From the NCBI GenBank assembly GCA_036744005.1, contig DAINOJ010000011.1:4282-68281 (forward strand): a DNA stretch of 64,000 nt. The letters run 5' to 3'. This stretch comes from Bacillota bacterium (lineage in GTDB: Bacteria > Bacillota > JAAYKD01). The translations under genes and the position numbers were made by a program. Positions 1 to 26,070 of this stretch are shown piece by piece. The notes under the pieces were generated by a model. It had not been told where the DNA came from, ran no database searches, and saw only the letters and a program-made list of their open reading frames with translations. The stretch's first letter is position 1. The number at the start of each line of letters is the position of its first letter.

Positions 1-9
1 GAGTTCGAT

Positions 10-447
10 ATGCAAAAATTTGCCGAAAAAATGCGTGATGCCAGAGCCGAACTCAACATGAGCCAGGCAACCCTGGCCGAGGAGACCGAATTATCCATTC
101 GTTCCATTTCCGCTTATGAAACCGGAACCGCTCTTCCCCGCCCTTCTACTTTGCGCAAGTTGGCCAAGGCCTTACACGTCACGGTAGAATACTTAACCAA
201 CGATGAGGTGCAAGATCCCAATGCCGGTCTGGTTCGTGAGCAATCCATGGACAACATCCGCTCCATGTATGGCACCCGAGGTGTTGCCGAAGCCGAAGCT
301 TTGCTGCTGCAAAATCGTGCGTTATTTGCCGGCGGTTCGTTAAGCCAAGAAGCCAAAGATGCCTTTTTCCAGGCCGTCATGACGGCCTATGTCACTTGCA
401 AAGAAGATGCACGGCAAACATTTAGCCGCACAAAGGACGGAGAATAA
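10..447 (+). CDS. XRE-family helix-turn-helix transcriptional regulator
   Basis: 145-aa ORF with an N-terminal HTH_3-like segment (NMSQATLAEETELSIRSISAYETG...LRKLAKAL). It lies directly upstream of, and abuts, an ImmA/IrrE-type peptidase gene. The true start may lie upstream of the window. Confidence 0.7.
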   Translation: MQKFAEKMRDARAELNMSQATLAEETELSIRSISAYETGTALPRPSTLRKLAKALHVTVEYLTNDEVQDPNAGLVREQSMDNIRSMYGTRGVAEAEALLLQNRALFAGGSLSQEAKDAFFQAVMTAYVTCKEDARQTFSRTKDGE

Positions 448-448
448 T

Positions 449-979
449 ATGTCCATTACCACCATCAGCCGCGAAGTAGAACAGCTGATTCGGCGTTATG
501 ACGAAACCAATGTCGCCCGTCTTTGCCGATCCATGGGGGTAACCGTACTCTTTTCTCCAATGGGTAGTTTCGATGGGGCCTGCAAGGGTTTCTACTTAAG
601 TCAGTCCCGTAAACAGGTGATTATGGTCAACAGTCATTTATCGGAAGATCTGCAAGAAATTATCATGGCGCACGAATTGGGGCATGCTGTGTTACACCGA
701 AAGGCTTCCGGCATTCGCACCTTTCACGACTTTGTCATGTTTGACGAAACTTCTCAATTCGAGTTCGAAGCCAATATCTTTGCAGCCGATTTGCTGATGC
801 CCGATGAAGAAGTGTTGTCCTTGCTGAACGACGATATCTCTTTTCTCGCTGCCGCAGCGGCCTTACAGGTACCTCCGGAATTATTGGATTTTAAGTTTCG
901 CGTGTTGAAGCGGAAGGGCTACAAGGTGATTGACCCTCCCATCGTGGCCAGTGGTGATTTTTTAAAGAAAGTGAGGTAA
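449..979 (+). CDS. ImmA/IrrE-family zinc metallo-endopeptidase
   Basis: ATG at 449 with a GGAGA ribosome-binding site 6 nt upstream. HEXXH motif (MAHELGHAVLH). The HTH gene next to an ImmA-like peptidase is the classic anti-repressor protease pair. Confidence 0.75.
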   Translation: MSITTISREVEQLIRRYDETNVARLCRSMGVTVLFSPMGSFDGACKGFYLSQSRKQVIMVNSHLSEDLQEIIMAHELGHAVLHRKASGIRTFHDFVMFDETSQFEFEANIFAADLLMPDEEVLSLLNDDISFLAAAAALQVPPELLDFKFRVLKRKGYKVIDPPIVASGDFLKKVR

Positions 980-984
980 GCAAC

Positions 985-1260
985 ATGGAAAACAAGGCAA
1001 AAGTGTATGTGCGTGTCACGGCTAGTTTCGATCCGGAAGGTACGTTACTTCCGGAAGCCATTATTTGGGAAGATGGCACTGCCTATGCCATCGACCGAGT
1101 CCTCGACGTTCGGCCTTCGTTCTCTGCCAAGGCCGGTAGCCAAGGGGATCGGTATATGGTACGTTTGGGCAATCATTATAGTTATTTGTTCTTCGAGCGC
1201 AGTGCGGCAGCCCAAGGGAATCAGCTGGGGCGTTGGTTTGTCGAACGTCAGCTGGCCTAA
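985..1260 (+). CDS. small hypothetical protein (91 aa) cotranscribed between ImmA and SRAP genes
   Basis: ORF in the operon gap with ATG 5 nt after the ImmA stop. No motif recognised. Confidence 0.4.
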   Translation: MENKAKVYVRVTASFDPEGTLLPEAIIWEDGTAYAIDRVLDVRPSFSAKAGSQGDRYMVRLGNHYSYLFFERSAAAQGNQLGRWFVERQLA

Positions 1261-1271
1261 GGAGGTTCACT

Positions 1272-1874
1272 ATGTGTGGTAGATATTATGTAGAAGCCGA
1301 AGCCACTGCAGTAGAAATGATGGGCATTCTGGCGGAGATTCGGCGTCGGTATGCCGAGTCCCCTGTCCTGCCTTTGCTCAAAGTAGGAGAAGTGGCTCCT
1401 TCTCAGATTTCGGTCGTGGTCGCCAACAGCAAGAGTATGAAGCAAGCTCCTTTTCTTATGAAATGGGGATATTCCCAAGACCGCGGGGGCTTGATCATCA
1501 ATGCTCGCAGTGAGACAGTGGTTGATAAACCCATGTTCAAAGAAAGCGTGCATAGCCGCCGTTGCATGATTCCGGCCAATCGGTATTTCGAATGGCAGAC
1601 CATGGAGCATGGCAAACAGAAATATGCACTTTTTCCTGAAGATCAAGCTTTTTTCTTTATGGCAGGAATTTATCGCCCGGAAGGTCCGGAAGGAGTTCCT
1701 AGCTTTGTCATTCTCACTCGCGATGCGGCCGAAGGGATTCGTCACATTCACCCACGCATGCCGGTGATCTTACCTCGGGAGCAGTGGAATGAGTGGTTAA
1801 ATCCCATTGTCGATCCGCGTAAGGTTTTAGAAACGGCCATTTCTCAAGTGGCCTTTGAACAAGTCGCTCCATAA
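1272..1874 (+). CDS. SOS-response-associated peptidase (SRAP / YedK / HMCES family), abasic-site DNA-protein crosslink enzyme
   Basis: N-terminus MCGRY, with the catalytic Cys directly after the initiator Met. AAGGAGG ribosome-binding site at 1259-1265. 200 aa, with a conserved SRAP core (e.g. IPANRYFEW). Confidence 0.8.
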   Translation: MCGRYYVEAEATAVEMMGILAEIRRRYAESPVLPLLKVGEVAPSQISVVVANSKSMKQAPFLMKWGYSQDRGGLIINARSETVVDKPMFKESVHSRRCMIPANRYFEWQTMEHGKQKYALFPEDQAFFFMAGIYRPEGPEGVPSFVILTRDAAEGIRHIHPRMPVILPREQWNEWLNPIVDPRKVLETAISQVAFEQVAP

Positions 1875-1877
1875 TGC

Positions 1878-1908
1878 TTGACGTACCCCACTTCTATGGT
1901 TTATACTA
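1878..1908 (+). promoter_or_regulatory. sigma-A-like promoter (TTGACG ... TATACT) driving the riboswitch leader and CDF transporter
   Basis: TTGACG at 1878-1883 and TATACT at 1903-1908. The 19-nt spacer is slightly long. Confidence 0.35.
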
Positions 1909-1937
1909 TATGTATATAGACTTGGCACTGCATTTTG

Positions 1938-2046
1938 CTACAGTACTGAGCAGGTTGCTTTTCTGGAAGAAAAGTCAACCGGGCCTAAAGTCGGGCAACA
2001 GGATCTACCACCTGTGGGACAGTTTTGTTCCACAGGTGTTTTTTTA
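1938..2046 (+). promoter_or_regulatory. candidate NiCo (czcD-motif) riboswitch with intrinsic terminator expression platform
   Basis: The leader contains ACUGAGCAGG (1945-1954) and GUGGGACAGU (2014-2023), recalled as the conserved junction strands of the czcD motif. An internal P2-like hairpin GGUUGCUUUUC-GAAAAGUCAACC is present. A 9-bp terminator stem CACCTGTGG/CCACAGGTG (2010-2037) plus a T7 run overlaps the 3' aptamer strand. Immediately upstream of a CDF exporter. Confidence 0.55.
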
Positions 2047-2064: not shown

Positions 2065-3234
2065 ATGACCGATTTTCTCATACAGTTCCTCGTTCGAGAT
2101 TTCAGTAAAACCAACCATCCTTTGGTACGTGAACGCTATGGTAAAATGGCAGCAGGAGTGGGTATTGCGACCAATTTATGCTTATTTGCTTTAAAAATCG
2201 TCATGGGTTTATGGGTGGGCAGTGTCGCCATTGTTGCCGATGCAGTGAACAACTTATCGGATTCCGCTTCTTCGTTGGTACTTCTCATTGGCTTTTATTT
2301 GGCAGGAAGACCGGCCGACGCCGAACACCCTTACGGGCACGCTCGCATGGAATACATTGCCGGTATGGTCATCTCCTTCTTCATTGTTTTGTTGGGATTT
2401 CAATTGGGGCTTTCTTCTTGGAAGAAGATTCTCAACCCAGAACCGGTGTTATTCCATAGGACTTTGGTGGTTTCTCTGCTCATCGCCATAGCCGGCAAGT
2501 TTTGGCAAAGTCGCTTTTATAAAACCGTAGGTCAGCGCATTGGCTCGGTTGCTCTCCTTGCGACTTCCGAAGATAGTCGTAACGATATCCTAGCCACCAC
2601 AGCAGTTCTATTGTCTTCTCTGGCTGGAGCATTCTTGGGGTGGCAAATCGATGGTTGGATGGGTTTGCTGGTGGCTTTGTTCATCCTGTATAGTGGGATC
2701 CGACTCATCAGTGATACCATGACTCCCCTTTTGGGCACCGCCCCGGACCCCCAGTTAATCGAAACCATTCGTGAAAGAGTCCTTTCCTATGAACATGTTT
2801 TGGGCTTGCACGATTTAACGTTACACAACTATGGGGAAACGCGCATTTATGCCTCTTTACATTGCGAAATCGATGCCAACCATGATGTCATGGACAGCCA
2901 TGAGCTTATCGATCGCATTGAACGGGACTTCTACCATGACTTGGGTATTCGCATGGTCATCCACATGGATCCTATTATTGCAGATGATCTACGAAGCGAT
3001 GCCTTGCAAGATGAAGTATCTGCATTATTGACCCATATATCTCCTCTACTTAAGATGCATGACTTTCGTGTGGTTTGGGGGAAGAAATTGACGAAAGTCA
3101 TCTTCGATATTGAAGTGCCCTATGATTTTAGTTTATCCGATGAAGACTTACTTTTGCTTATAGAAGAACGACTTCGCGAGTTGAGTCCCACCTACCATGC
3201 CGTTTTGCGCATCGATCACGAAGATGTATATTAG
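2065..3234 (+). CDS. czcD: cation diffusion facilitator (CDF) family divalent metal efflux transporter
   Basis: ATG at 2065 after an AAGGAG ribosome-binding site. Six transmembrane segments with the CDF signature, plus a C-terminal cytoplasmic domain. 389 aa. Confidence 0.85.
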   Translation: MTDFLIQFLVRDFSKTNHPLVRERYGKMAAGVGIATNLCLFALKIVMGLWVGSVAIVADAVNNLSDSASSLVLLIGFYLAGRPADAEHPYGHARMEYIAGMVISFFIVLLGFQLGLSSWKKILNPEPVLFHRTLVVSLLIAIAGKFWQSRFYKTVGQRIGSVALLATSEDSRNDILATTAVLLSSLAGAFLGWQIDGWMGLLVALFILYSGIRLISDTMTPLLGTAPDPQLIETIRERVLSYEHVLGLHDLTLHNYGETRIYASLHCEIDANHDVMDSHELIDRIERDFYHDLGIRMVIHMDPIIADDLRSDALQDEVSALLTHISPLLKMHDFRVVWGKKLTKVIFDIEVPYDFSLSDEDLLLLIEERLRELSPTYHAVLRIDHEDVY

Positions 3235-25759: not shown

Positions 25760-26070
25760 GGAATCATCCTTTCATTTTCACAAAAAAACAAGAGCTTTTC
25801 ACGAATGAAAAGCTCCATAAAATCGTACGAGGACACGGTACGATCATCATGATAGCTCTCCACCTTAGTGACAGTCCACAGCATATTCTGCTGAAGCCCA
25901 GCTTTACTCGTTCAGGCAAACAGGAGTAAAACTTCGGCGAAGCTCCCCTTTCATCCACACCAATGCACTGTTGTTGTGTCGGATTACTCTTGGTCTTCGC
26001 TCCTCTATCTCATGTATTTTGTTGTATTAGGTGTTACGATAGCACAATAATACTACCCTGTCAAGGTTCT
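25760..26070 (-). promoter_or_regulatory. long structured 5' leader with terminator/attenuator upstream of the amino-acid ABC operon (class unassigned)
   Basis: Minus-strand TTGACA-17-TATCGT promoter near 26060. About 250-nt leader ending in GAGCTTTTCA-ttcg-TGAAAAGCTC hairpin plus a U7 run (25786-25815) immediately before the ribosome-binding site. Confidence 0.35.

Follow-up and report, generated by a model that had tools for sequence, protein, structure and literature searches.

Introduction

Several bacterial switches pair an XRE-type repressor with a metallopeptidase of the M78 family. In the CapH/CapP system the peptidase CapP is inactive without single-stranded DNA (ssDNA) and cleaves the repressor CapH in its presence, and the capH-capP genes are located upstream of, and opposite to, the cargo operon (bioRxiv 10.1101/2022.04.27.489752). 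Likewise, PprI/IrrE directly senses ssDNA and cleaves an XRE repressor (PMC10904395), while ImmA/ImmR of ICEBs1 provides a mobile-element example of such a switch (PMC8072749). Here we describe a pair of this kind at the very beginning of a 64,000-nucleotide stretch of a Bacillota genome (assembly GCA_036744005.1, contig DAINOJ010000011.1, positions 4,282 to 68,281), referred to as the window in the following. The pair consists of an XRE repressor and an ImmA/IrrE/CapP-type zinc metallopeptidase, termed ImmA below, and is followed by genes for a 91-amino-acid (aa) protein, termed p91, and for an SRAP (YedK/HMCES-type) protein. We regard it as fairly likely that these four genes supply the regulators and accessory proteins of a cassette for translesion synthesis (mutagenesis), of which they make up one half. 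The cassette would reside in the chromosome of uncultured gut Clostridia and appears to be switched by a repressor and a protease rather than by LexA.

The second group of related systems is centered on ImuB-C, the C-terminal domain of ImuB, which was described as a novel beta-barrel in a recent survey (NAR 2026; PMC12926913) and on which, as far as our literature search found, only a few papers touch. On computational grounds, Aravind et al. (2013) connected standalone ImuB-C proteins with DinB, SRAP and DUF955 (= Peptidase_M78) metallopeptidases, and reported them in the taxa and neighborhoods considered here, e.g. as DinB-ImuBC-SRAP in Clostridium leptum and Ruminococcus gnavus (PMC3765255). 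Furthermore, ImuB-C was found to be coupled to YqjH-type polymerases, mostly in Clostridia, and a complex of Y-family polymerase (PolY), RecA and ImuB-C was proposed (Timinskas and Venclovas, 2019; PMC6511836).

A Divergent Y-Family Polymerase Beyond the Window Edge

The window begins only nine nucleotides before the start codon of the XRE gene. The region further upstream could be read on contigs with identical genes, one of which (L001; window position = L001 position - 9991) serves as the coordinate reference in Table 1. A divergently oriented gene for a protein of 417 aa is located ~195 bp upstream of XRE on all six contigs that reach far enough (L001-L006). Its product carries the IMS, IMS_HHH_1 and IMS_C domains of Y-family polymerases, among the NCBIfam models those for DNA polymerase IV fit it best (321 bits), and the catalytic motifs DLNAFYASVE and GMDEC can be read directly from the sequence. 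The C-terminus contains QLDLL, which on direct reading resembles a beta-clamp-binding motif, and a stretch similar to the RecA N-terminus, RQHALETTIDTLRNRFGERSI, which was equalled in score by 17 of 5000 shuffled sequences and matches the RecA-NT-like motif of Timinskas and Venclovas (2019; PMC6511836). A preliminary description based on the window sequence had taken the cassette to be self-contained; this does not hold for the window, since the polymerase gene is found directly before its first base. The second half of that claim, namely that the locus is not a prophage region, is borne out by the housekeeping, syntenic flanks described below. The locus is thus an example of a module whose main effector is concealed by a window edge.

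Two Face-to-Face Promoters and Lineage-Specific Repeats

The polymerase gene and the XRE operon are each preceded by a promoter with close agreement to the consensus (P1 and P2, Table 1). The two promoters face each other within the ~195-bp intergenic region, such that the predicted start sites are only ~15 bp apart. This face-to-face geometry was predicted in 46 of 48 loci, with a spacing of 7-41 bp. Of the two exceptions, one has its promoters arranged back-to-back (L010 3773-4022, Bacillota metagenome-assembled genome OY762825.2), whereas in the other (L036) the deviation may have arisen from the scoring.

The pentamer ACTTC/GAAGT is present five times in the 194 bp of intergenic DNA, a count that was reached by none of 5000 shuffles. 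One copy overlaps the -10 element of P1 and two copies flank the -35 element of P2. In other lineages different hexamers are enriched (AAGTTC, AGTTGC, TTACGC and GATTTC, with up to eight copies), the enrichment being significant in most loci, and these hexamers co-vary with the recognition helix of the helix-turn-helix (HTH) domain across lineages. Such tracking of the recognition helix is the pattern expected of operators that co-evolve with their repressor. A TCGAA-N8-TTCGA palindrome over the ribosome-binding site of the XRE gene was also considered, and was dropped because it is not conserved in L009, one of the three closest relatives. No Cheo (LexA) box was detected in the PolY-XRE intergenic regions of L001 and L009, where the best site has four mismatches to CGAAC-N4-GTTCG, so that the LexA-independence suggested in the preliminary description is retained as probable for this lineage.

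Conservation of the Cassette and Replacement of the Regulator

A genome scan yielded 572 loci, the best 80 of which were annotated by tblastn with the window proteins. In IMG/VR the cassette was found on 112 contigs, and 80 viral loci were scored for their arrangement. A polymerase divergent from genes in the order XRE-ImmA-p91 is the predominant arrangement in both sets (48/80 genome loci and 54/80 IMG/VR loci). Among the 70 genome loci in which 3.2 kb or more of sequence precedes p91, 65 have a PolY gene within 2.5 kb, as do 70 of the 80 viral loci, whereas SRAP follows p91 in only 11 of the ~75 loci with sufficient downstream sequence, including all three closest relatives (L009-L011). Thus, a census of the four-gene order that had been suggested on the basis of the window recovers the first three genes as a conserved unit, but not SRAP as the fourth, and the idea of a switch wired primarily to SRAP is not supported in this form: the conserved partners of the switch are the divergent polymerase and p91. 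SRAP itself is an optional accessory fourth gene of the cassette family.

A divergent polymerase with no detected XRE or ImmA gene was found in 13 of the 80 genome loci. Of the PolY loci without XRE and ImmA, five have PolY directly beside p91 with no regulator, in two cases on the same strand. In eight of the 13 loci the slot of XRE-ImmA is occupied by a single gene, encoding a protein of 239-286 aa with the Pfam domains HTH_3 and Peptidase_S24, which by this domain composition is predicted to be a self-cleaving repressor of the CI/LexA/HdiR type. A tblastn search with one of these S24 repressors matched ~13 further IMG/VR loci. In other phyla the slot is held by LexA, as in the LexA-ImuBC-DinB arrangement of Geobacter and the SRAP-ImuBC||LexA arrangement of Holdemania, both listed by Aravind et al. 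(2013; PMC3765255, supplement). The exchange of one type of regulator for another at a fixed position argues most strongly that XRE and ImmA form a damage switch with the same job as S24 repressors and LexA, and it suggests that the pair would act by derepression through proteolysis of the repressor after DNA damage.

The S24 versions carry an additional small gene between the repressor and p91, which may be a second regulator. In L173-L175 (L173 9741-9956) its product has 71 aa and matches no Pfam family, whereas in L045 (4225-4533) it is a 103-aa HTH_26 (Cro/CI-type) protein.

The Repressor and Its Predicted Protease

The domain calls of the preliminary description (HTH_XRE, ImmA/IrrE-type HEXXH peptidase and SRAP beginning with MCGRY) were all recovered by Pfam searches, and its comparison of the first two proteins with ImmR/ImmA and DdrO/IrrE is supported by best matches to CapH/CapP and IrrE models. 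The HTH_3 domain of the XRE protein spans residues 9-62, its best PADLOC model is capH (5.3e-13), and the N-terminus matches the 434 repressor and the N-terminal domains of DdrO in the PDB, so that the protein is classed by sequence as CapH/DdrO/ImmR-like. The C-terminal domain is family-specific and contains a block, ALFAGGxLSQEAKDAFF, that is conserved across 48 distinct sequences and could be the region of dimerisation or of cleavage. For the peptidase the best PADLOC model is capP (2e-16), and the closest solved structures are those of IrrE (3dte, 3.4e-7) and CapP (7t5t, 5.6e-5). By analogy with these enzymes, ImmA is predicted to be the anti-repressor that cleaves the XRE protein.

p91, a Probable ImuB-C-Like Protein

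At normal thresholds p91 has no match in Pfam, PHROGs, NCBIfam or PADLOC. Nevertheless, it belongs to a large family, with 211 close clusters and 2174 representatives at E ≤ 1e-3 in a library clustered at 50% identity, so that p91, earlier described as having no assigned function, is not an orphan; this family of more than 2000 representatives matches standalone ImuB-C proteins by context and weak similarity. Among the close relatives W28, D55-R56-Y57, Y67-R72 (YLFFER) and G82-E87 (GRWFVE, including W84) are invariant. Modeling with AlphaFold (AF2), which had been proposed together with a fold search, gave an all-beta structure of seven strands with good confidence (predicted local distance difference test, pLDDT, 86.6), but no PDB fold was matched with E < 0.1.

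The only Pfam family that recurs among the matches is PF20114 (DUF6504), which was hit by 12 of 101 diverse family members with a best, still sub-threshold, E of 0.0048. PF20114 covers the C-terminal domain of ImuB: it was the only family matched by the C-terminus of a genuine ImuB from the imuA-imuB-dnaE2 cassette of a plasmid (E = 0.0033), and homologues of the C-terminus of Rhizobium etli ImuB are annotated as PF20114 and named ImuB. In an AlphaFold model of this ImuB-C the strands succeed one another as in the p91 model and agree with them in length. On the basis of gene context, the weak similarity to PF20114, the all-beta model and the published descriptions of ImuB-C (PMC3765255; PMC6511836; PMC12926913), it is likely, as judged from sequence and models, that p91 is a standalone, ImuB-C-like small partner of Y-family polymerases.

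An alternative is that p91 belongs to the switch and not to the polymerase. In this case it would sense damage or serve as an adaptor, and would thereby enable ImmA, or in other versions the S24 or LexA repressor, to inactivate the repressor. Indeed, p91 is always located immediately 3' of the regulator genes, be it as XRE-ImmA-p91, S24 repressor-p91 or LexA-ImuBC, some elements have XRE-ImmA-p91 with no polymerase nearby, and a role in sensing DNA damage was proposed for ImuB-C by Aravind et al. (2013; PMC3765255). However, the five loci in which PolY adjoins p91 are free of any regulator, the ImuB-C domain of ImuB has a structural place in the mutasome, where it makes contact with DnaE2 and ImuA (PMC12926913; PMC6511836), and the homologues ImmA, IrrE and CapP need no third protein (bioRxiv 2022.04.27.489752; PMC10904395). 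Apparent HTH-p91 fusions, which would also favor a place in the switch, look chimeric. Taken together, we consider a regulatory role of p91 rather unlikely and prefer its assignment as a partner of the polymerase.

Fusions of p91 with LexA_DNA_bind, HTH_3 and a sortase domain were rejected as probable chimeric gene calls, since four proteins (P0254, P0257, P0259 and P0261) end in the same p91-like stretch of 90-100 residues but begin with N-termini that are unrelated, namely a LexA DNA-binding domain, HTH_3, a sortase and one unknown sequence; alternatively, one p91-bearing segment may have been inserted in several contexts. In P0127 an apparent deletion joins ImmA to p91. In P0202 (200 aa) one p91-like domain directly follows another, a hint that a dimer may be the working form of the domain.

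The SRAP Gene

The fourth gene encodes a full-length SRAP domain, in which residues 1-187 correspond to positions 1-192 of the PF02586 model; with 143.8 bits against a curated cut-off of 27.1, the placement in this family is firm. The catalytic Cys2, which removal of Met would expose, is present in the N-terminal MCGRY, an AGGAGG ribosome-binding site precedes the start codon by 6 nt, and YedK structures are matched at ~1e-13, with the NARSE, YFEW and RMPVIL motifs aligned to those of solved homologues. SRAP enzymes of the YedK/HMCES type crosslink, via a thiazolidine, to abasic sites in ssDNA and thereby shield them. Since there is neither a promoter nor a terminator between p91 and SRAP, the SRAP gene is taken to be co-transcribed with the upstream genes in this lineage. 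Co-induction with a translesion polymerase would, by analogy, provide two alternative routes for the tolerance of abasic sites. A 164-aa open reading frame on the opposite strand within the SRAP gene (window 1257-1751) is most likely spurious.

A Stable Chromosomal Copy of a Mobile Family

On the polymerase side, the cassette is followed outward by genes for a Cys/Met pyridoxal phosphate (PLP) enzyme, MatE and a radical SAM protein, and on the SRAP side by genes for a CDF transporter, an alpha/beta hydrolase, a lactate permease and ApbE. No integrase, recombinase, structural or transfer gene was found in 10 kb upstream, as read on the identical contigs, or in the first 6 kb downstream. The earlier statement that no phage genes or genes of an integrative and conjugative element (ICE) follow the cassette accordingly holds for this lineage, and of the flanking genes just upstream that would have recast the cassette as a mobile-element immunity region, none was found within 10 kb. 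The flanks are syntenic with those of close relatives, on both sides in L009 and on the upstream side in L011, with protein identities of 73-90%. The first 2 kb of the window have a GC content of 49.5%, with no sharp discontinuity once the upstream part is added, no att-like repeats bound the cassette, and no tRNA genes are present within the window. Housekeeping syntenic flanks and the lack of a GC jump, of repeats and of tRNA genes indicate that this copy is a stable chromosomal cassette; signs of its horizontal acquisition were considered and dropped, as there is neither a GC jump nor an att-like repeat.

The cassette family as a whole moves horizontally. The locus could be read as a mobile-element remnant or cargo, in which XRE and ImmA are a prophage or ICE immunity switch, and PolY, p91 and SRAP are phage-style cargo comparable to uvrX/yolD/yoqW of SPbeta. 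PHROG families matched by all three annotated proteins, the 112 IMG/VR contigs and the presence of the cassette beside D5 primase, PolA and McrBC (L173) or serine recombinases (L176) in other lineages are consistent with this explanation. For the present lineage it is nonetheless quite improbable, given that housekeeping genes, with no integrase, recombinase or structural gene among them, fill 10 kb on the polymerase side and over 6 kb on the SRAP side, that the flanks keep their synteny in relatives with cassette proteins of 73-90% identity, and that there is no GC discontinuity, flanking repeat or window tRNA gene. In addition, it can be argued that the regulator controls the polymerase and not excision genes.

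Two of the loci outside this lineage lie in DNA of mobile appearance. In L173 (1-15825) the genes upstream include replication genes of phage or plasmid type and encode D5 primase-helicase, family A polymerase (PolA), ssDNA-binding protein and a PD-(D/E)XK nuclease, while those downstream encode YpsA, a DNA methylase and McrBC. L176 (1-12700) contains XRE-ImmA-p91, three serine recombinases and a second XRE/M78 pair with no polymerase, and the products of the three genes that come after p91 (198, 344 and 238 aa) match no Pfam family.

Gene Order and Boundaries

The order, strand and coordinates of the four genes given in the preliminary description are retained (Table 1), but its wording of abutting or overlapping genes applies only in its first part: the intergenic gaps are 1, 5 and 11 nt, with zero overlap, the first of them separating the XRE stop codon from the ImmA start codon in the same orientation. 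The ImmA start in Table 1 is also that of the gene calls on eight metagenome contigs, and an alternative longer start at 389 is unlikely. When the XRE protein was looked up in public assemblies, the identical four-gene string was recovered on at least 23 metagenome contigs. The recurrence of the identical string across contigs and of the XRE-ImmA-p91 order across loci shows that the arrangement is non-random.

Table 1. Features of the cassette and its flanks (window coordinates unless the L001 contig is named).
Feature	Position	Strand	Properties
PolY gene	L001 8553-9806	-	Y-family polymerase, 417 aa, divergent from XRE
P1 promoter, toward XRE	L001 9866-9894	+	TTGACA-17-TATAAT, 12/12 consensus
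P2 promoter, toward polymerase	L001 9951-9923	-	TTGACA-17-TACGAT, extended TG, 10/12 consensus
End of XRE operon 5' untranslated region / ribosome-binding-site region	1..9	+	promoters, candidate operators and polymerase gene further upstream
XRE repressor gene	10-447	+	145 aa; Pfam HTH_3, E = 2.8e-14
ImmA/IrrE/CapP-type zinc metallopeptidase gene	449-979	+	176 aa; Peptidase_M78 (PF06114), E = 6.4e-23; HELGH
p91 gene	985-1260	+	91 aa; predicted all-beta, 7 strands
SRAP (YedK/HMCES-type) gene	1272-1874	+	200 aa; starts MCGRY; PF02586
3' boundary: leader of the next gene	1878..2038	+	promoter-like site, NiCo riboswitch, terminator hairpin

The first terminator after the SRAP gene belongs to a NiCo (nickel/cobalt) riboswitch at 1940-2024, which scores 51.4 bits where the cut-off is 37 and lies directly 5' of the CDF cation-efflux gene (~2065-3234, + strand). 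A promoter-like site at 1878-1907 precedes the riboswitch, and the terminator hairpin at 2009-2038 overlaps its 3' end. Elsewhere in the window, a lysine riboswitch aptamer (RF00168) is present at 25845-26015 on the minus strand (91.4 bits).

Proposed Mechanism

In the mechanism that we propose, the gene of the Pol IV/YqjH-type polymerase and the XRE-ImmA-p91-SRAP operon would be transcribed from the two face-to-face sigma-70 promoters of the 195-bp intergenic region, and the XRE protein would repress both promoters via repeated short operators, in this lineage ACTTC/GAAGT. DNA damage, probably in the form of ssDNA, would be sensed by the metallopeptidase, which upon activation would cleave the XRE protein and thereby derepress the whole cassette. 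The polymerase, which carries the QLDLL and RecA-NT-like motifs, would then form a small mutasome together with RecA and the ImuB-C-like p91, while the co-induced SRAP protein would covalently shield abasic sites in ssDNA as a second route of tolerance. Going further, the cassette might be a self-contained LexA-independent mutagenesis switch, in which the face-to-face promoters and the cleavable repressor set a threshold or bistable gate on the error-prone polymerase and p91 is the damage-sensing third component; we mention this extended version as a speculation with a small chance of being correct.

A number of observations weigh against the proposed mechanism. The assignment of the candidate operators is based solely on repeat enrichment and co-variation, and simultaneous derepression of two promoters that face each other may lead to interference, so that the actual logic could be more complex. 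The match of p91 itself to PF20114 (DUF6504; E = 0.12, 13.1 bits) is below the cut-off of 24.2, and comparisons of p91 with a Rhizobiales ImuB-C alignment and with genuine ImuB proteins from imuA-imuB-dnaE2 plasmid cassettes by hidden Markov model (HMM) searches and hhalign in both directions, with shuffled controls, were not significant (P ~0.04-0.06). Loci with XRE-ImmA-p91 and no polymerase within 5-10 kb (L176 and the viral loci L166-L168 and L170-L172) indicate that p91 is perhaps not a polymerase subunit in the strict sense. With respect to LexA, the search for LexA, RecA and a second PolY, none of which was found, covered the 64-kb window only. Moreover, the corresponding region of an Oscillospiraceae metagenome-assembled genome (L025, JBMNQI010000056.1, 1049-1194) contains a perfect Cheo box, CGAACATTAGTTCG, and one with a single mismatch, CGAACGGATATTCG. 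These boxes demonstrate that the scan is able to detect such sites and point to a LexA input in some lineages: either the cassette of L025 is also under the control of LexA, or its XRE protein has adopted a LexA-like operator.

That the XRE/M78 pair is a toxin-antitoxin-like or defence module merely located beside an independently regulated, possibly LexA-controlled, polymerase is very improbable, because across many families the pair is strictly associated with PolY and p91 and has a shared promoter region that is conserved, gives way to S24 repressors at the same position and has no Cheo box nearby in this lineage, even though COG2856/XRE pairs have been described as toxin-antitoxin-like (PMC10538038), both proteins are matched by PADLOC models and Cheo boxes are present in L025.

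If the proposed mechanism is true, an error-prone polymerase would, in many gut Clostridia of high abundance (Oscillospiraceae and relatives), be governed by a local ssDNA-sensing protease and repressor, instead of or besides LexA, which would bear on how antibiotic or genotoxic stress raises mutation rates in the microbiome. The cassette would also offer a simple system of four or five genes in which standalone ImuB-C and bacterial SRAP proteins could be studied in their native regulatory setting.

Comparison With Known Systems

As a gene association the cassette is not new, since it was described in silico in 2013 (PMC3765255) and 2019 (PMC6511836). The descriptions by Aravind, Anand and Iyer (2013; PMC3765255), by Timinskas and Venclovas (2019; PMC6511836) and in the recent survey (PMC12926913) concern the same protein families and taxa (Oscillibacter, Pseudoflavonifractor and Clostridium leptum), and the modules agree with the present locus in having a Pol IV-type polymerase with a RecA-NT-like motif, a small all-beta partner and an occasional SRAP neighbor. 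By contrast, the peptidase is given one sentence there and the regulatory anatomy is not described. As far as we found, the new elements are the paired XRE repressor, the fixed XRE-ImmA-p91 order, the face-to-face promoters, the lineage-specific candidate operators and the exchange of XRE plus ImmA for an HTH protein with an S24 domain.

The regulator resembles CapH/CapP, DdrO/IrrE (PprI) and ImmR/ImmA in placing an XRE repressor beside an M78 HEXXH peptidase, and, as in CapH/CapP, the regulator genes are divergent from the gene that they are thought to control. The cargo differs, being a translesion polymerase here, and a cyclic oligonucleotide-based antiphage signaling system (CBASS), the radiation regulon or excision genes in the known systems. 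Furthermore, the peptidase is short (176 aa) and has no GAF-like domain as in IrrE, and the regulator operon also holds two effector or accessory genes.

With LexA-imuB-C-polY of Geobacter sulfurreducens and lexA-imuY-(80 aa)-dnaE2 of Deinococcus deserti the cassette shares a dedicated local repressor whose neighbors are a small accessory protein and a polymerase of the Y family, these systems being damage-inducible. Their repressors are RecA*-dependent, self-cleaving S24 proteins, whereas here two proteins, XRE and a metallopeptidase, would take this place. The streptococcal hdiR-umuC cassettes, reportedly described by Varhimo et al. in 2007, are likewise said to be damage-inducible and to have a local self-cleaving S24 repressor and a small accessory protein beside a Y-family polymerase. 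Finally, the SRAP protein is similar to E. coli YedK and human HMCES in its full-length SRAP domain and N-terminal Cys2, but, unlike these, it is encoded in one transcription unit with a repressor/protease switch and a probable polymerase partner.

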